Assembly: GCA_038320555.1 (NCBI GenBank)
Contig: JBBQEJ010000002.1
Coordinates: forward strand, 22,618-86,617
Reading direction: 5' to 3'
DNA: 64,000 bases
Source: Vicinamibacterales bacterium
GTDB taxonomy: Bacteria; Acidobacteriota; Vicinamibacteria; Vicinamibacterales; 2-12-FULL-66-21
Made by a program: the position numbers and the translations under genes. The notes under the pieces are model-generated. The model had not been told where the DNA came from and did no database searches. It saw only the letters and a program-made list of their open reading frames with translations. Positions 5,661 to 60,455 of this stretch are shown here, one piece after another. The first letter of the stretch is position 1; the number at the start of each line of letters is the position of its first letter.

Positions 5661-8183
5661 CTATCTTACCGCCACGCGATCGACCATCACGCCGACGTCG
5701 CGGTCGTCGGGCGTTCCAAGCACGCTCCGCGGCCTCCATGTCGGCGTCACGAGCTTCAGCTCGACCGGATCGCCTGTCCCGGCCGCGAGGGCCGCGAGAT
5801 CCGGCGGAATAGCGAACCGATAGGGCAGGAATCCGCCCCGGACCCGCGCCGTGCCGAGCCACTGGCCCTGCAGGTAGACGCGCACATCGGCTGGGACCAC
5901 GGACGGCGGCCGCCCGCCGTCGCTCATCCAGATCGTCACCTCGCGGCTGGACGGCTGGAGCACCGTGATGGATACGTACGACGTGGCACCCGTCCAGCGG
6001 AACGTGTGCCCCTCCGATGTTTCCTTCGCGTGGAACCTCACGACCTGGAGGTCGTCGCGCATGCCGACGTCGAGATCGAACCAGAGCCCGTCGCGCGCCT
6101 CTGGCGCCGTGAACTCGTAGACTCCGTACTCGAATTCCTTCTGACGGACGAATCGCGGAAACGCATCGAGCGGCGTGTCGTACTCCGGCACCTGGAAACG
6201 TTCGCTCGCAAGCGGTCGAACGCCGTACCGGTGCGACAGCAGGTCGGTGCCCCCGCCGCCGATGAACAACACGCGGTGATAGCGCGTATGCGCCCAATCA
6301 AGGAACGCCGCAAGCGTCGGCTTGTCGGGTCGGACCGGTTGCAGCACGAGGACGTTGCGCGCGTAGGTGTACGCAAGCGGAAGTGCGAGGACGTGCACGT
6401 CGCTGCCGGTATCGCGCGATTCGGCAAGGACCAGGTCGTCGTCGCCGATCGTTCCGGCGAGGCGCTCCAACCTGGGGATCAGTCCCGCGTACTCGACATG
6501 ATCGACGACCGGCCGGCTGGTGCGCGCGTAGTGGAGCGCAAGCAGCGCGATGAAGACCATGCGCACCAGGGTTCGCAGCACTCCAGCGGCGGTTCGCGGC
6601 GCACGAATCCCTCCGAGCGCGGCCGCCGACGCGAACAGAAGCATGCCGGGGAGAATCACCGGAAGGAACCGCCGCGTCATCCAGAAGTGATCGGGAGCGA
6701 TTCGAATCTTGAAGAAGAAGAAACAGGCGAACACGACGACCGTCATGATGAGTGCGGGATCGCGCCAGAACGCCCGCCGCGCCACGAGCCAGAAGCCGAT
6801 CAGTGCCGCCATGAGCCCCGGCAGTGTGAGGTACAGGTTCGTGAAGGTGCGCAGCGCGTTTGCGTCGTGCGCGGCGAGTTTTCCGCCCGGATGCCGGAGA
6901 GTCAGCGCGTAGAGCGCCAGCAGCCAGACGACAGCCACGATCGCGAGCGGCAGCCATTCAAGAACCCGAGGGGAAACCCGCAGCGCGCGAGCCGGCGCAA
7001 GCAGAATGGCCAAGCCGGCCAGCGCCACCACACCAAGCACCACATATTCCCAGGCAGGAAGATTGCTGAGGAACACGATCGGCAGGAACGCGTAGGCGCG
7101 CATGGGGCCGAGCAAATAGATTGACGCAATGGCCGCGACGATCGCGAACGTGGCGACAAACGCCACGCGCGGACGCCGGCCGTCCAGCACACCGAGTGCC
7201 AGGCCGCCCGCGGCACCCGCGATGCCCAGCACAGCGTCGAACCGCAGGAACAACAACAGGCCGAGGAGGACGCCGGCGACGGGTGCGAAGAATCGATCGC
7301 CGTCTACGTGCGCGCGCGCGTTCGCGAGCAGCGCCGCGAACAGCAGCGTTTGCATCACGACCTCGGCGTTCGGGTACCTTGCAAACCACACCTCGATCAC
7401 GTGGAGCGCAAGCAGCCCGGTTGCCGCGGCCGCCGTGATGCGTCCGACAAGACGCGTCCCGGCGAAATACACCGCGAGCAGCCCGAGAATCGCCCAGACG
7501 CTGACGGTCCGTCGAGCGCCGGTCAAGCCGTCGATGCCGTACCCGATGGCAATCGACGCCGGAAACAGGTGCGGAAACTGACCGACGACGGCGCCGGTGT
7601 CGAAGTTCCTGATGAAGAACCCCATGAATCGCAACGGCTCGTCCGCGCGGAAGAACAGGTTGCGTGTGAATGGCGGGACCGTCGCGACGATCGGATCCCG
7701 AAAGATCAGCGCGCCGCGCTGCGCGACCTGAATGCCCTCGTTCATGTACACGCCGGGATCCTTCCCGCCGATGATGTACTCCGCCGGGGGAAAGAAACGC
7801 GAGACCGCGAGCGCGACGAGCATCACGGGCACGATCGCCGTCCACGTCACCCGCCGCGCCGCGGCGCCCAGGCGAAGGCGGCCACGCGCTATCACGGCAC
7901 ACAGCGCCACGGCGCCGATGTCGGCAAAAATCAGCCGGCCGAACGTGTACCGCTGGAATACCGCGAGCCCTAGGACTACGGAGAGCGAGATGGCGAGGCT
8001 GAGCACGACGGCCCAGAAGGCGCGCTCCTCCGCGTCGAGTCCCGCGCGTCTGTCCCTATCGAGCCACGGGAGCCGGAAGATCGCGGCGCCGGGAAGATAG
8101 CCGATGATCGCGAGCGCGATGAGCTGAGTGGCTATCGCCACCGTCGCCCTTCGCCAAGAGGTAGCGGAGTGCCGGTGAGACAA
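5661..8183 (-). CDS. large multi-pass membrane protein, GT-C-type (ArnT/PMT-like) glycosyltransferase with about 230-aa soluble C-terminal domain
   Basis: 840 aa. Many hydrophobic helices span the first ~600 aa, followed by a soluble tail (FEYGVYEFTAPEARDGLWFDLDVGMRDD...). TTG start at 8183; GTG 8141 is an alternative. The family call rests on architecture only. Confidence 0.7.
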   Translation of the reverse strand: MSHRHSATSWRRATVAIATQLIALAIIGYLPGAAIFRLPWLDRDRRAGLDAEERAFWAVVLSLAISLSVVLGLAVFQRYTFGRLIFADIGAVALCAVIARGRLRLGAAARRVTWTAIVPVMLVALAVSRFFPPAEYIIGGKDPGVYMNEGIQVAQRGALIFRDPIVATVPPFTRNLFFRADEPLRFMGFFIRNFDTGAVVGQFPHLFPASIAIGYGIDGLTGARRTVSVWAILGLLAVYFAGTRLVGRITAAAATGLLALHVIEVWFARYPNAEVVMQTLLFAALLANARAHVDGDRFFAPVAGVLLGLLLFLRFDAVLGIAGAAGGLALGVLDGRRPRVAFVATFAIVAAIASIYLLGPMRAYAFLPIVFLSNLPAWEYVVLGVVALAGLAILLAPARALRVSPRVLEWLPLAIVAVVWLLALYALTLRHPGGKLAAHDANALRTFTNLYLTLPGLMAALIGFWLVARRAFWRDPALIMTVVVFACFFFFKIRIAPDHFWMTRRFLPVILPGMLLFASAAALGGIRAPRTAAGVLRTLVRMVFIALLALHYARTSRPVVDHVEYAGLIPRLERLAGTIGDDDLVLAESRDTGSDVHVLALPLAYTYARNVLVLQPVRPDKPTLAAFLDWAHTRYHRVLFIGGGGTDLLSHRYGVRPLASERFQVPEYDTPLDAFPRFVRQKEFEYGVYEFTAPEARDGLWFDLDVGMRDDLQVVRFHAKETSEGHTFRWTGATSYVSITVLQPSSREVTIWMSDGGRPPSVVPADVRVYLQGQWLGTARVRGGFLPYRFAIPPDLAALAAGTGDPVELKLVTPTWRPRSVLGTPDDRDVGVMVDRVAVR

Positions 8184-10884: not shown

Positions 10885-11964
10885 TTATGCAGGCGCGAGG
10901 GCGGCGGCGACGCGGTCGATCGCGTTTGCCGGAAGCGAGGGATAGAGCGGCAGCGAGAGGATCTCGCCGCAGACACGGGTCGCGATCGGGCAATCAGCGG
11001 GCCGCTCGGACGCGAGGGCGGGCTGTGCGGGAATCGGGATCGGGTAGTGGATCAGAGTCTCGATCCCCGCCGCGCGAAGAGCCGCTTGAACCGCGTCGCG
11101 CGAGGCGCTGCGCACCGGGAACAGATGATAAACGTGCCCTTCGTCGAACAGAGGCGGGACCGCGATCGCGGTCGAGGGCCCGAGGCGCGCGCGATAATCG
11201 CGCGCGAGCGCCCGGCGGCGCGCAGTCCACTCCGGGAGAAAGGCGAGGCGGGCTCGCAGAATCGCGGCCTGAATATCGTCGAGCCTCGAATTCACGCCGA
11301 ATTCCCCATGGTGATAGCGATCGGTCTGCCCGCCGTTGCGAAGCCGTCGGGCGTGGTCGGCAAGTCGGGAGTCGTGGGTCGTGATCGCGCCGCCGTCACC
11401 GAGCGCACCGAGGTTCTTTGTCGGATAGAAGCTGAACGCCGCGGCCGCGCCGAAGCTGCCGACAGGCCTGCCCGTGCACGTCGCCAAATGCGCCTGACAG
11501 CAGTCCTCCACGACGGCGAGATTGTGGCGCGTGGCGACCGCGGCAATCGCGGGCATGTCGGCCGGTTGCCCGTACAGATGGACAGGCAGGATGGCCGCCG
11601 TCCGCGCCGTCACCGCGGCGTCGGCCGCTGCGGGATCGAGAGTCAGACGTTGTGGATCGATGTCGGCAAACACGGGCCGCGCCCCCACCATCATGATCGC
11701 GAGGGCCGAGTACGCCGCCGACAGTGGTGTGGTGATGACTTCGTCTCCGGGTCCAATCCCAAGCGCGCGCAGAGCAATCGCCAGCGCGTCGGTACCGGTC
11801 CCGACGCCGACCGCCTCGGCCGCACCGGACGCGGCGGCGAATTCTCGCTCGAACGCGTCCACCTCAGGGCCGAGAACGAACCACCCTCGCGTCATGACTC
11901 GCTCGACGGCCTCACGCACCGCGGCGGCGTCTTCGCCGGGTGTGAGCTGCAGGAAAGGGATCAC
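10885..11964 (-). CDS. DegT/DnrJ/EryC1/StrS-family PLP-dependent sugar aminotransferase (ArnB/WecE-like)
   Basis: IPFLQL...GWFVLGPEVDAFEREFA and FSFYPTKNLGALGDGGAITT (PLP lysine). Start moved to GTG 11964: GTGA overlap with the upstream stop and GGAG 6 nt upstream. Confidence 0.9.
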   Translation of the reverse strand: MIPFLQLTPGEDAAAVREAVERVMTRGWFVLGPEVDAFEREFAAASGAAEAVGVGTGTDALAIALRALGIGPGDEVITTPLSAAYSALAIMMVGARPVFADIDPQRLTLDPAAADAAVTARTAAILPVHLYGQPADMPAIAAVATRHNLAVVEDCCQAHLATCTGRPVGSFGAAAAFSFYPTKNLGALGDGGAITTHDSRLADHARRLRNGGQTDRYHHGEFGVNSRLDDIQAAILRARLAFLPEWTARRRALARDYRARLGPSTAIAVPPLFDEGHVYHLFPVRSASRDAVQAALRAAGIETLIHYPIPIPAQPALASERPADCPIATRVCGEILSLPLYPSLPANAIDRVAAALAPA

Positions 11965-20023: not shown

Positions 20024-20063
20024 TTGGTGAATTGGTGAATTGGTGAATTCACGAATTCACCAA
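20024..20063. repeat. three tandem octamers TTGGTGAA followed directly by their complement (32-nt near-perfect palindrome containing GTGAATTCAC)
   Basis: ttggtgaa ttggtgaa ttggtgaa ttcacgaa ttcaccaa. A further ggtgaatc copy lies at 20001. The element sits between the ychF stop and the glycan operon start. Confidence 0.75.
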
Positions 20064-20075
20064 TCGGCACCAGCG

Positions 20076-47010: not shown

Positions 47011-49500
47011 TTACTCCTTCAGTTCAACCACCGTCACTCCGCCCCCACCCTGGTTATCGGGCGCGGGGGCAGCGTTTGACACGAACGGATGCGTGCGGAG
47101 GAACTCGGCAATCGCGCGGCGCAGCTGGCCGGTGCCGTATCCGTGGATGATGCGCACGGACTTGACCTCGCTCAGCAGCGCGTCGTCGAGGAATTTCTCC
47201 GTGCGAGCCAACGCCTCCTCGACGTGGGCGCCGATGACGTTCAACTCGGTCGACGATCCCTCGCGCGGCTGCCACTCGACATTGACCCGCACGCGGGCCG
47301 GCTGCGCATTCACCGTCGCGGCGGGGGTGACGACACGGAGCTCGTCCACTCGCGCGCGCAGCCGTTTGCCGCGCACGTCCACTTCTGCTTCGCGATCGTG
47401 CAGCGCCTGCACGACCCCCTCGAGGCCGAAGGCGCCGACGAGCACGCGATCGCCGATTGCCGGCGCGCGGGCCGGCTCCATCCGCGCCACCGGTGTGGCC
47501 TCCGCCGCGTCGGGATGCGCGCGCAGCCGTTCGCCAATAGCCTCGACGGCGGCCCGGGCTTCGGCCCGAGCCGCGCCCGTTTCGCCGGTGGGGATGAGGC
47601 GGGGCGCCATCCTCCGCTCCGCATCCGCCGCCAGCGCCTCGGTCCGTGCTTTGAGCGCGTCTACGACGGTATCGATCTCGCGGCGGGCATCCCGCAGGCG
47701 CTCCTCGATCCGTTCGTCGAGGCGGCGCTTGAACGTGTCCTCGCGGTTGCGCAGCTCCTGATCGCGTACCTGCAGCCTGGTCCCCGCCTCGGCGAGCGTC
47801 TCCCGCTCGCGCACAGCGAGTCGCCGTTCGTGATCGAGCGACTGCAGGTCGCGCTCGATCTTGGCGAGGTGCTCGGCGAGCTGGGATTCCCGGGCGCTCC
47901 GATGTGCGCGCGCCTGTTCGATGACGTCGGCGGGCATCCCGAGGCGGTTGGCGATCTCGAGCGCAAGGCTGCTGCCGGGGGACCCATAGTTGAGCCGATA
48001 GGTCGGGGCGAACGTCTCTGGATCGAAACCAAACCCCGCCGCCATAACACCTTCGGTCGTCGACGCGTACGACTTCAGCGCATCGTAGTGCGTCGTCGCG
48101 ATCACCATCGCGCCGCGGCGTCGGAAGTGGTCGATGATCGCCATCGCGAGCGCGCCACCTTCGAGCGGGTCGGTCCCGGCGCCCGCCTCGTCGAGGAGCA
48201 CGAGCGAGGGCAGGATCAACGCTTTCTCCATCGAGACGATACTCGCGATGTGGGCGGAAAACGTGCTCAGGTTTGCCGAGATCGACTGCTCGTCGCCGAT
48301 GTCGGCAAACACCGTGCGGAAGACGGGTATCTGTGAGCCGCCCGCGGCCGGGATCAGGATGCCTGCCTGCGCCATCACGGACAAGAGACCGGCGGTCTTG
48401 AGCGCAACCGTCTTGCCACCTGTGTTAGGTCCGGTGACGACAAGTACATTCGTCGGTGGGATTAGGACGACGTCAACGGGGACTGGGCCCTCGAATCGCG
48501 AATCGCGAGTCGCGATTCGCGGTTCGCTCTCTTCAGCGGATTCATCGCTGAGTCGCCGCCGCACGGCGGGGATGAGCAGCGGATGCCTACCGGCGCGGAT
48601 CTCGAGTCGGCCATCCGTCGCGATTGCCGGCTCGGTCCCATCGATGAGCAGCGAAAACTGCGCGCGGGCCTGGAGCACGTCGAGCTCGGTTGCCGCCTGC
48701 ACGGTGCGCTCGAGATCGCCTCCGCGGCGGCGGAACGCATCGGTCAGCTCCAGCAGAATACGACGGACTTCCTCTGCCTCCTGCTGCTCGAGCGCGACGA
48801 TGTCGTTGTTGATTTCAACCGTGCTGAGCGGCTCGAGAAAGAGACTGGCGCCGCTGCCCGAGCTGCCGTGCACGATTCCGGGAATCGCGGAGCGATGTTC
48901 AGATCGAACGACGAGCACGTAGCGTCCATTGCGATCCGTGACGATCTGCTGCTGCAAGTATTTGGAGGTGTCCTTGCCGCGCAGATACGATTCCAGCGTG
49001 CCGCGCAGACGCGTACGCTGTTTCCGCAATCGATCCCGCACGCTTCGGAGCTCAGGACTTGCGTCGTCCATCACCTCGCCGGCCGGATCGATCTTGCGGC
49101 GGATGTCGGATATCTCGGCGTCGAACGTGGCAGACCCGTCTGCGATCGCGCGAAGAATCGGGCAGGCACCGCGGGCGCGCCGGACCGACGCGCAGGTCAC
49201 GTCGACCGACGCGAGAAACGAGCCGAGTGCGAGGAGGTGTCCGGCGTCGAGCGCTCGTCCGTCGACCCCAAGCGAGCTCAGTATAGCGTCGAGGTCCGCG
49301 GGGGCGTGAAGGCCGATCTGATTGTCCGCCAGGAACCGTACGGTTTCCGAAGTCGCGGCAAGCGCGGTCGCAACCGCGCGCGGCTCCGTCTGAGGCTCGA
49401 GTAACGCCAGGCGCGCGGCTCCGGGCGGGGTCTGCGCAAAGCGGCAAACCGCCTCGACAATCCGATCGAACTCAAGGGCCCTCAGGGCGCCTGCATGCAT
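47011..49500 (-). CDS. mutS2: endonuclease MutS2 (MutS domain + C-terminal Smr)
   Basis: 829 aa. VVTGPNTGGKTVALKTAGL, LVLLDEAGAGTDP and C-terminal Smr (VRIIHGYGTGQLRRAI). Contains an in-frame palindromic insertion (see repeat 48492-48526). Confidence 0.95.
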   Translation of the reverse strand: MHAGALRALEFDRIVEAVCRFAQTPPGAARLALLEPQTEPRAVATALAATSETVRFLADNQIGLHAPADLDAILSSLGVDGRALDAGHLLALGSFLASVDVTCASVRRARGACPILRAIADGSATFDAEISDIRRKIDPAGEVMDDASPELRSVRDRLRKQRTRLRGTLESYLRGKDTSKYLQQQIVTDRNGRYVLVVRSEHRSAIPGIVHGSSGSGASLFLEPLSTVEINNDIVALEQQEAEEVRRILLELTDAFRRRGGDLERTVQAATELDVLQARAQFSLLIDGTEPAIATDGRLEIRAGRHPLLIPAVRRRLSDESAEESEPRIATRDSRFEGPVPVDVVLIPPTNVLVVTGPNTGGKTVALKTAGLLSVMAQAGILIPAAGGSQIPVFRTVFADIGDEQSISANLSTFSAHIASIVSMEKALILPSLVLLDEAGAGTDPLEGGALAMAIIDHFRRRGAMVIATTHYDALKSYASTTEGVMAAGFGFDPETFAPTYRLNYGSPGSSLALEIANRLGMPADVIEQARAHRSARESQLAEHLAKIERDLQSLDHERRLAVRERETLAEAGTRLQVRDQELRNREDTFKRRLDERIEERLRDARREIDTVVDALKARTEALAADAERRMAPRLIPTGETGAARAEARAAVEAIGERLRAHPDAAEATPVARMEPARAPAIGDRVLVGAFGLEGVVQALHDREAEVDVRGKRLRARVDELRVVTPAATVNAQPARVRVNVEWQPREGSSTELNVIGAHVEEALARTEKFLDDALLSEVKSVRIIHGYGTGQLRRAIAEFLRTHPFVSNAAPAPDNQGGGGVTVVELKE
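48492..48526. repeat. 35-bp near-perfect palindrome of the CGCGAAT/GAACCGC family inside the mutS2 coding sequence
   Basis: cgaatcgcgaatcgcga g tcgcgattcgcggttcg, one mismatch between arms. The 19-mer gtcgcgattcgcggttcgc (48509-48527) is identical to intergenic 53846-53864. It encodes EPRIATRDSRFE. Confidence 0.85.
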
Positions 49501-49601: not shown

Positions 49602-49724
49602 CAGGTTCTTCAGGGTTCTACTTCGTTCTGCAGGGTTCTACTGGGTTCGCCGCGACTAAGGTGGGCCGACGAACCAAGAGAACCTTGAAGAACCTGGTAG
49701 AACCCGGTAGAACCTCGTAGAACC
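49602..49724. repeat. long imperfect hairpin of GGTTCT units (49602-49649) and AGAACC units (49670-49724), including three tandem decamers NGGTAGAACC
   Basis: caggttcttcagggttctacttcgttctgcagggttctactgggttcg ... cgaaccaagagaaccttgaagaacc tggtagaacc cggtagaacc tcgtagaacc. It ends 6 nt before the larB stop codon. Confidence 0.75.
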
Positions 49725-49730
49725 TTGGGA

Positions 49731-53845: not shown

Positions 53846-53980
53846 GTCGCGATTCGCGGTTCGCGGGTTTGGCTCCTTCTTTGTGGCGTCCGCCTTCCGC
53901 CTTCGCGCGAAGCGCTACGGCGAGACCTCGACGAAGCTCGAAGAGCGAAGTCGGGGCGGAGGCTGGTTGGGCGGAAGGAC
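53846..53980. repeat. composite repeat region: GAACCGC-family 19-mer, CGAAG-rich stretch with palindrome cttcgcgcgaag, bulged hairpin gtccgccttccgcc / ggcggaaggac
   Basis: Read directly from the sequence. 53846-53864 is identical to 48509-48527 inside mutS2. A tagcggc unit follows at 53981-53987. Confidence 0.65.
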
Positions 53981-55127: not shown

Positions 55128-55252
55128 ACAGGAGGTCAGAAGAAATCTTCAAAAAGAGTCGTCTGATCTCCTTGCCTCCTGTAAGAACACGCCAACCGCC
55201 AACCGCGAACCGCGCGCCGCGAACCGCGAGTCCGCGAGTCGCGATCTGCGAG
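55128..55252. repeat. hairpin acaggagg...cctcctgt (55128-55182) followed by nine CGCNAAC/CGCGAGT heptamers (55190-55252)
   Basis: cgccaac cgccaac cgcgaac cgcgcgc cgcgaac cgcgagt ccgcgag tcgcgat ctgcgag. It shares the 13-mer cgcgagtcgcgat with 48504-48516. Confidence 0.7.
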
Positions 55253-55263
55253 CCATCCCTGAA

Positions 55264-60389: not shown

Positions 60390-60455
60390 AATCCCTGATT
60401 CACGAACCGCGAACCGCGAACCGCAACCGCGAACCGCAACCGCGAATCAGGGATT
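60390..60455. repeat. GAACCGC heptamer array (60404-60444) enclosed by a perfect 11-bp inverted repeat aatccctgatt / aatcagggatt
   Basis: aatccctgatt cac gaaccgc gaaccgc gaaccgc aaccgc gaaccgc aaccgc g aatcagggatt. The right arm contains the divIVA stop codon. Confidence 0.85.

Follow-up and report, generated by a model that had tools for sequence, protein, structure and literature searches.

We analyzed a 64 kb window (the whole stretch of 64,000 nucleotides from contig JBBQEJ010000002.1) of the genome of a soil acidobacterium of the order Vicinamibacterales, an assignment that agrees with the names carried by its homologues, with a focus on its mutS2 gene and on a palindrome that lies in frame within this gene. 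The features discussed here and their coordinates are collected in Table 1. Pfam analysis of the 829-residue protein identified a MutS_V domain (residues 354-534) and an Smr domain (residues 753-828). The best sequence match in the PDB was B. subtilis MutS2 (8qpp/7qv3, E 3e-117), and the core of the structural model matched the MutS2 proteins of T. maritima and T. thermophilus with target-normalised template modelling (TM) scores of 0.83-0.89. The two domains together with the PDB sequence and fold matches identify the protein as MutS2, the absence of MutS domain I being indicated by Pfam alone.

Table 1. Features of the mutS2 locus and related heptamer arrays in the 64 kb window (positions are those of the window).
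Feature	Position	Strand	Basis or remark
mutS2 gene, 829 aa, intact	47011..49500	-	Open reading frame (ORF) list, Pfam, PDB matches
Walker A motif GPNTGGKT, residues 357-364	48409..48432	-	20 residues downstream of the repeat-encoded peptide
Lineage-specific insertion, residues 310-339, from the HPLL motif to the VPVD strand	48484..48573	-	Length comparison, alignment, model
Hypervariable loop-coding part, residues 316-338	48487..48555	-	Conservation, lengths, predicted local distance difference test (pLDDT)
Five-unit heptanucleotide array, GAACCGC GAATCGC GACTCGC GATTCGC GATTCGA (coding strand)	48491..48526	-	Tandem Repeats Finder (TRF), unit register; E326-E337
Predicted hairpin in mRNA or single-stranded DNA, 11-bp stem CGCGAAUCGCG/CGCGAUUCGCG, loop ACU	48497..48521	-	Folding
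Intergenic array G TCGCGAT TCGCGGT TCGCGGG	53846..53866	+	Begins 7 nt past the citrate synthase stop; holds the 19-mer shared with mutS2
GAACCGC / CGAGTCG heptamer array in the ada-lepA intergenic region	55185..55254	+	Gene order from orthologous locus L161
CGAACCG array in the intergenic region upstream of an amidohydrolase gene	60403..60446	+	Repeat scans

The segment in front of the ATPase core is unusually long in the window protein. The HPLx and GPNxGGKT motifs are separated by 51 residues, compared with 25-26 in ~60 MutS2 proteins from Bacillota and other non-acidobacterial phyla (HPLLDPKKVVPIDV...) and 24-25 in four Acidobacteriota, which bears out the statement in an initial annotation of this DNA that the stretch from HPLL to Walker A is usually short. 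Based on this spacing and on a break in the phmmer alignment to B. subtilis MutS2 (query 311/343 versus chain 314/321), ~26 residues are extra between HPLL and VPVD, where the ~60 other MutS2 proteins have 4-5 residues. The initial annotation had asked whether a ~25-30 aa segment is lineage- or strain-specific. The segment is a lineage-specific insertion relative to other MutS2 proteins, but the repeat supplies only ~12 of the ~26 extra residues, and IPAVRRR(L/I)SD is a conserved family-level extension, while the remainder of the segment is hypervariable and repeat-bearing. In 83 close homologues, conservation extends to R315 and resumes at P339, with zero invariant or near-invariant columns in between.

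Two AlphaFold models of the protein were produced. The first run, based on the 83 close homologues (at least 79% identity), reached a mean pLDDT of only 63.5 and placed the whole ATPase domain below 50. It was therefore uninformative on the loop and was replaced by a run with a more diverse alignment. The second model had a mean pLDDT of 83.5, with the repeat-bearing residues 320-336 below 50 and without assigned secondary structure. All segments of at least three residues with a pLDDT below 50 were 320-336, 404-412, 632-635, 662-676 and 731-748. Residues 311-317, the conserved AVRRRLS part, were modeled as a short helix, and residues 342-346 form the strand preceding Walker A. As judged from this model, the repeat-bearing loop is probably disordered. 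The suggested tolerated surface loop is thus recovered as a low-confidence stretch without assigned structure in front of the Walker A strand, its exposure being predicted from these same properties.

Within the loop, positions 48492-48526 form the 35-bp palindrome cgaatcgcgaatcgcga-g-tcgcgattcgcggttcg, with 17-nt arms, one arm mismatch and a 1-nt centre, exactly as first described. It spans codons E326-F336 plus one base on either side and is translated as EPRIATRDSRFE. TRF analysis of positions 48492-48527 gave a period of 7, 4.3-5.1 copies and 89-91% matches. Together with its flanks, the coding strand reads AGC GAACCGC GAATCGC GACTCGC GATTCGC GATTCGA GGG and thus holds more than the three head-to-tail 7-nt copies that define a heptanucleotide long simple sequence repeat (SSR). 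A strict period-7 detector overlooked the arrays of the window, whose units are imperfect, and TRF was used instead. The constant part of the unit and the T that follows it make up TCGCGA, a perfect 6-bp palindrome, and any TCGCGA-N run is self-complementary save at each seventh base. Because this core is self-complementary, the long palindrome is largely a by-product of tandem repetition. Judged from its sequence, the palindrome represents a brief stretch of GAACCGC-family 7-base tandem repeats and no discrete palindromic element. Arrays of GAACCGC, GAATCGC and GACTCGC contain zero stop codons across all six frames, those of AACCGCG, AATCGCG and ACTCGCG are likewise stop-free on both strands, and the peptides encoded by these arrays are hydrophilic, with a high content of R, D, E, P, S and T residues. 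Openness in six frames and a hydrophilic product are the properties required of a tolerated passenger.

The history of the array was followed in the DNA of eleven close mutS2 orthologues. The same five-unit array is present in independent assemblies that share 87-93% of their mutS2 DNA sequence with the window, with differences mostly at unit positions 3-4 (GANNCGC): locus L165 reads GAACCGC GACTCGC GACTCGC GATTCGC GATTCGA, L163 has GACTCGC three times followed by GATTCGC GATTCGA, and the third unit of L167 is GAAGCGC. At 80% aa identity, L171 has the direct array AGC GGATCGC GAACCGC GAATCGC GAACCGC GAACCGA AGG with the same boundaries as in the window, and at 81% aa identity L170 has GGC (GAACCGC)x4 at the same site. 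L161 corresponds to a direct GAAYCGC x5 array once a 45-nt insert is subtracted, and L169 holds a shorter, three-unit version. Since relatives of ~80% identity carry a direct array at the same site, the palindromic form was derived in place. The palindromic state was reached by A/C-to-T changes in units 3-5 that involve two unit positions. By this distribution the array is old, present before lineages that are ~80% identical in protein diverged, and no recent arrival from an intergenic copy. The array is present in every relative that shares this loop context, and neither a target-site duplication nor an empty site was found for it. Copy-number polymorphism of this array was not seen among the window, L163, L165, L167 and L171, all of which have five units. 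Arrays of other heptamer families at this site differ in their number of copies (L090, L097, L098 and L120).

Kinship of the palindrome with intergenic repeats, as proposed initially, was confirmed within the window. Besides the mutS2 array there are three GAACCGC-family arrays, all of them intergenic. Their lengths and unit make-up vary, and they do not represent copies of a single element with defined ends. As stated in the initial annotation, an exact repeat of the 19-mer at 48509-48527 is present at 53846-53864, and the 13-mer CGCGAGTCGCGAT is found again at 55233-55245. When random 51-nt segments of the window were resampled, a 19-nt match elsewhere occurred in 1 of 300, and a 13-nt match in about a third. 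By these frequencies, the 19-mer identity exceeds what chance would give, but the 13-mer taken by itself does not. A scan for the 17-mer pattern that allowed up to 3 mismatches yielded 15 matches compared with 2.2 expected, several of these matches overlapping one another. Across the 64 kb window, only heptamer arrays of other length or composition were found to be related to the palindrome, the longest shared word being 19 nt, and TRF detected no second heptamer array in a coding region of the window.

The same loop accommodates other repeats across the Vicinamibacterales. Among 185 homologues, the HPLL-to-VPxD segment ranges from 3 to 74 residues. GGATCCC arrays are found at the loop site in L097 (7.4 copies, 95% matches) and L166, a GGAACCC array of 7.6 copies in L168, and GGGAGTC or GGGATCC variants in L090, L098, L120 and L124. 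A hairpin resembling repetitive extragenic palindromic (REP) elements (CCCTTCGACAxGCTCAGGG...CCCGAGCxxGTCGAGGG) lies in the loop of L008, L081 and L086, with intergenic copies in L004, L086, L100, L132 and L161. In L161 (10999-11043) and L162 (2443-2487), a 45-nt copy of this REP-like hairpin interrupts the heptamer array precisely at its TCG^CGA centre, and L164 retains a 33-nt remnant of it at the array centre (~5775-5807). CGA is present on both sides of the 45-nt insert, which makes a 3-nt duplication possible. Outside the segment, L162 and L163 are 98.9% identical in mutS2 and the insert is present in L162 only, yielding a pair of filled and empty sites. This difference may reflect insertion, precise loss or recombinational exchange, each of which is compatible with it. 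Similarly, L164, L165 and L166 are 96.6-97.4% identical outside the segment and carry three different segments. Repeats are also found in other parts of the protein modeled at low confidence: the linker matching residues 662-676 contains heptamer arrays (AATCAGC; CAGTCGT x7) in L091 (9922-9953) and L119 (9901-9950), and a third low-confidence linker contains the REP-like element PSTGSGRPEALEGR in L124 (~10172). In the window itself no REP-like element was found, a lone match with 3 mismatches being at chance level. Taken together, the loop appears as a hypervariable sink for several unrelated repeat types that turn over at the level of strains.

Further observations were made on these genes. 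In L006, positions 10944-11027 hold an 80-nt insert in the MutS2 loop with perfect 17-nt terminal inverted repeats (GGGTCGGGAGTCATTTG ... CAAATGACTCCCGACCC). Its flanks are 96% identical at the aa level to L124, whose segment differs, and no second copy of this element was found among the loci compared. Identity profiles of mutS2 among the window and L161-L169 are mosaic, with L168 and L163 being 99% identical in one 200-nt block and 81-85% in others; as read from the alignments, these profiles indicate frequent recombination among these lineages. The MutS2 linkers at residues 662-676 and 731-748 precede the SH3-like domain and Smr. Two loci, L011 (CAYUPN010000019.1) and L013 (CAZNMF010000141.1), are labelled Bifidobacteriaceae and Solibacteraceae, respectively. 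Their MutS2 proteins and loops resemble the Vicinamibacterales group (52-54% identity, IPA/MKAV-type loop), and the bins may be mislabelled.

Heptamer repeats were surveyed in ~1.0 Mb of acidobacterial DNA comprising the window, L001-L021, L081-L132 and L161-L169, a sample of loci rather than whole genomes that is centred on mutS2 (about a fifth of the DNA). TRF assigned period 7 to 129 of the ~190 tandem arrays with at least 3 copies, and these represent 79 different units. An excess of period-7, mostly non-coding arrays of the genome-wide type is therefore visible in this mutS2-centred sample. Arrays of period 7, 14 and 21 were then screened for coding location, as judged by a spanning ORF and a coding-like codon-position GC content on both sides. 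Every true heptamer array that passed this screen is in mutS2, either in this loop or in the linker of L091 and L119, while period-21 matches in other genes are ordinary protein-level repeats. As the sample is centred on mutS2, the apparent enrichment of coding heptamer arrays in this gene is only suggestive. Neither in the window nor in the other genes of the ~1 Mb did we find the same element in many unrelated genes with a conserved peptide. A protein search with (EPRTANR)x6 returned only hypothetical ORFs of 37-74 aa without a Pfam domain, from several high-GC taxa, and long translated GAACCGC tracts in real proteins appear to be rare. A set of short ORFs (P0186-P0205) from Streptomyces, Burkholderia pseudomallei, Massilia, Glycomyces and Haloprofundus consists of translated GAACCGC-type arrays and probably represents spurious gene calls.

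The composition of the heptamers shows a marked bias. AATC or GATT is present in 39 of the 129 units, against an expectation of 7.3 +/- 2.4 from shuffling the letters of each unit, and many units fit GATTGNN. The arrays have a GC content of 52%, against 65% for the genome. The AATC/GATT bias suggests that the process which creates or maintains the arrays has a sequence preference. A link to a methyltransferase via GANTC sites (GAATC, GACTC, GATTC) was considered and dropped, most AATC units in the lineage being CAATC. We also considered whether each genome uses one heptamer in both mutS2 and intergenic DNA, as in concerted evolution. This was only partly supported and we make no claim of it: mutS2 and intergenic units agree for L166 (GGATCCC) and the window (GAACCGC) and disagree for L161, L162 and L163, while L166 additionally has intergenic AACCGCG. 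Origin of the L090 array by triplication of a local GGGAGTC, as present in L003, remained a weak hint, as the nearest relatives of L090 already carry related arrays and the similarity could be a coincidence.

We regard it as likely that the mutS2 palindrome is an in-frame, five-unit SSR of the GAACCGC family that is carried as a tolerated passenger, without a function of its own, in a MutS2 loop that is lineage-specific, hypervariable and probably disordered. The array would have arisen by slippage-type duplication, polymerase slippage having been proposed as the cause of heptanucleotide long SSRs (summarised in PMC4679880, PMC4692102). Its persistence would be explained by a net insertion that is a multiple of three and by the permissive nature of the loop. 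Improved palindromy would have come about through point changes, possibly via hairpin-templated correction of a quasi-palindrome. Such correction is a known mutational route, and the identical two changes in units 4 and 5 would fit it.

A number of points weigh against this interpretation. Slippage as the origin is inferred from the tandem structure and the literature. The five units are constant down to ~80% aa identity, an unexpected finding for a tract prone to slippage; the units here are imperfect, however, and this suppresses slippage. The identical GATTCGC changes in units 4 and 5 suggest a concerted event or selection for the hairpin over independent neutral substitutions. Purely neutral tolerance would also not obviously lead one to expect all the coding heptamer arrays found to be in mutS2, but the sample is centred on this gene and three low-confidence linkers are available in it. 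Lastly, surface exposure of the loop is inferred from low pLDDT values and the lack of assigned secondary structure.

Among the alternatives, the scenario of a discrete intergenic palindromic element, similar to REP elements or transposable elements of the miniature inverted-repeat type (MITEs), that transposed into mutS2 and was tolerated there fares best, although we consider it unlikely. The 19-nt identity with intergenic DNA would be accounted for, and real hairpin elements do enter the loop in relatives, as seen for the 45-nt REP-like hairpin and the 80-nt element of L006. The window sequence is nevertheless a heptamer array that lacks defined ends, has neither terminal inverted repeats nor a target duplication, and has intergenic relatives that vary in length and units instead of being copies of one element. 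A link to a RAYT gene or other transposase was not found, although no genome-wide search for one was made. The orthologous direct array, with the same position and boundaries, further marks the palindrome as a derived state of an old tract. Of the suggestion in the initial annotation that an intergenic repeat element landed in a coding region, the presence of intergenic-family repeat DNA in frame is thus retained, whereas the sequence is a tandem array that is old and became palindromic in place (L170, L171).

Another possibility, to which we assign a small probability, is that the RHPLL-VPVD loop, perhaps together with two other linkers, is a true preferred target or diversification cassette. 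Heptamer slippage, REP-like hairpins and hairpins with terminal inverted repeats would then converge on this site, with the variation or occasional out-of-frame states modulating MutS2 activity. If true, this would be a repair or ribosome-rescue gene whose coding sequence constitutes a repeat-driven switch.

Somewhat less probable still is diversifying selection on a MutS2 surface loop, driven by escape from an inhibitor or by tuning of partner contacts, with repeats supplying the variation. It would fit the extremely fast turnover of the segment compared with its flanks, the mosaic alleles, which suggest exchange of segments between lineages, and the occurrence of coding heptamer arrays only in mutS2 within the sampled DNA. 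The variable part, on the other hand, has no conserved feature beyond its hydrophilic composition, and its length ranges from 0 to ~70 aa, some orthologues being without any insertion. The segment is modeled at low confidence and without assigned secondary structure, and two other low-confidence linkers also gather repeats, which fits permissiveness better than a specific interface.

We consider it very improbable that the array is a contingency locus in which gain or loss of one unit switches MutS2 off or on and thereby modulates recombination or ribosome rescue. A heptamer tract that lies within an ORF and ahead of its ATPase and Smr domains does have the classic phase-variable layout, and long near-perfect tracts exist in orthologues, as in L097 and L168. 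Between RHPLL and GPNTGGKT, however, we found zero frameshifts or stops in ~70 assembled acidobacterial loci, although these are consensus assemblies in which minority alleles could be hidden, and a search favouring intact proteins could equally conceal off-alleles. The five units are moreover imperfect, and their number is unchanged down to ~80% aa identity.

The array could also be read as a nucleic-acid element. The region 48475-48545 (71 nt) was predicted to fold as RNA with -29.5 kcal/mol (z -3.1), and the DNA fold of the hairpin region reached -19.7 kcal/mol (z -3.7). A terminator scan of the site was negative, the stem being without a following T-run, and no promoter or Rfam match was found at the palindrome. 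An effect of the hairpin or of GANTC/TCGCGA sites on mRNA stability or translation, or their binding or methylation by a protein, is just as improbable as a contingency locus: the stable 11-bp stem is perfect in both the window and L167 (87.6% mutS2 DNA identity) and the CGCGA core is retained while the other two unit positions vary, but the stem is mismatched at one position in L163 and L165, the arrays of L161 and L164 are direct and form no hairpin, and genes that are 97% identical swap the whole segment for unrelated repeats.

Several other repeats in the window were recorded in the course of this analysis. The 230-nt spacer 5' of the mutS2 start contains inverted decamer arrays (GGTTCTACAG x4.5 and AGAACCTGGT x4.7, positions 49604-49725) that lie ~30 nt apart and could pair into a very long hairpin. 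The same spacer holds decamer arrays in L163 and L168 (both arrays) and in L164 and L169 (one array listed for each). Their recurrence at this position suggests an element with a regulatory or structural role. An Rfam match of the decamer hairpin to a microRNA was far below threshold and was judged to be due to chance. At 20024-20064, (TTGGTGAA)x3 is followed by inverted copies (TTCACGAA TTCACCAA), giving a 41-nt palindrome made from an octamer array, again with the layout of an array plus an inverted array. A 15-nt inverted repeat (AATCCCTGATTCACG at 60390-60404 and CGCGAATCAGGGATT at 60441-60455) encloses the intergenic CGAACCG array, which would place the array in the loop of a hairpin. Directly after the 53846-53866 array, a GC-rich stretch at 53880-53960 (…gccttcgcgcgaagcgctacggcgagacctcgacgaagctcgaagagcgaag…) resembles another dispersed repeat type.

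The mutS2 locus represents a convenient natural system for following the birth and decay of short repeats under reading-frame constraint. It should likewise be useful for asking how palindromes attract insertions and how much junk a loop adjacent to an ATPase can absorb. For annotation purposes, EPRTANR, RIPDPGS or PSTSSGRPEPVEGR peptides in proteins of these bacteria are to be read as translated repeats and not as domains.

Among the closest known systems are the long heptanucleotide SSRs of Mrazek, Guo and Shah 2007. According to the summaries in PMC4679880 and PMC4692102, heptanucleotide repeats outnumber the other classes of long SSR in many genomes of large size and high GC content, with head-to-tail 7-nt units that have many different sequences per genome and are mostly intergenic near gene ends. 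The predominance of period 7 in the ~1.0 Mb of acidobacterial DNA agrees with this picture. These are genomes of non-pathogens, and the window tract differs from the repeats described there in its self-complementary unit, its stable copy number and its location inside a conserved housekeeping gene, even though coding DNA would be expected to exclude units whose length is not divisible by three. Related genome-wide intergenic arrays include cyanobacterial heptamers, TAACTGA in Beggiatoaceae (PMC4679880) and GGGNATC in Xanthomonas and Nostoc (PMC4692102), which are occasionally translated into 7-aa peptide repeats. In those genomes one or few units dominate (PMC4679880, PMC4692102), whereas we found 79 units with a GATT/AATC bias.

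In-frame palindromes in housekeeping genes are known from the Rickettsia palindromic elements (RPEs), which occupy positions that are apparently compatible with the protein fold (Ogata et al. 2000, reviewed in PMC10969869). The window array resembles them as an in-frame repeat in a conserved protein at a structurally permissive site, the ORF being intact and residues 320-336 lying between well-modeled strands. RPEs are, however, discrete elements of ~150 bp with conserved peptides in dozens of unrelated genes, in contrast to the 35-nt tract without boundaries and with one host gene seen here. REP elements, bacterial interspersed mosaic elements (BIMEs) and hairpin MITEs share with it the character of short, imperfect, GC-rich palindromes, which in their case are dispersed between genes, and the 45-nt element of L161 and L162 behaves in this way. 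REP elements are, however, extragenic by definition, and the window sequence is no copy of a dispersed palindrome. Phase-variable contingency loci of host-adapted pathogens likewise contain a repeat tract within an ORF whose unit is not a multiple of three, but they differ from the present case, where no out-of-frame alleles were found in the loci compared and a constant number of imperfect units is seen. Both heptanucleotide repeats and palindromic passengers carried in frame are thus already known, and the array is no new kind of system. What is new within the literature searched is a conserved repair protein in which a 7-nt repeat is translated through all three frames, a traceable history from direct array to palindrome, and one loop in which unrelated repeats have settled again and again throughout a bacterial order, the site being filled in one gene and empty in another that is ~99% identical.

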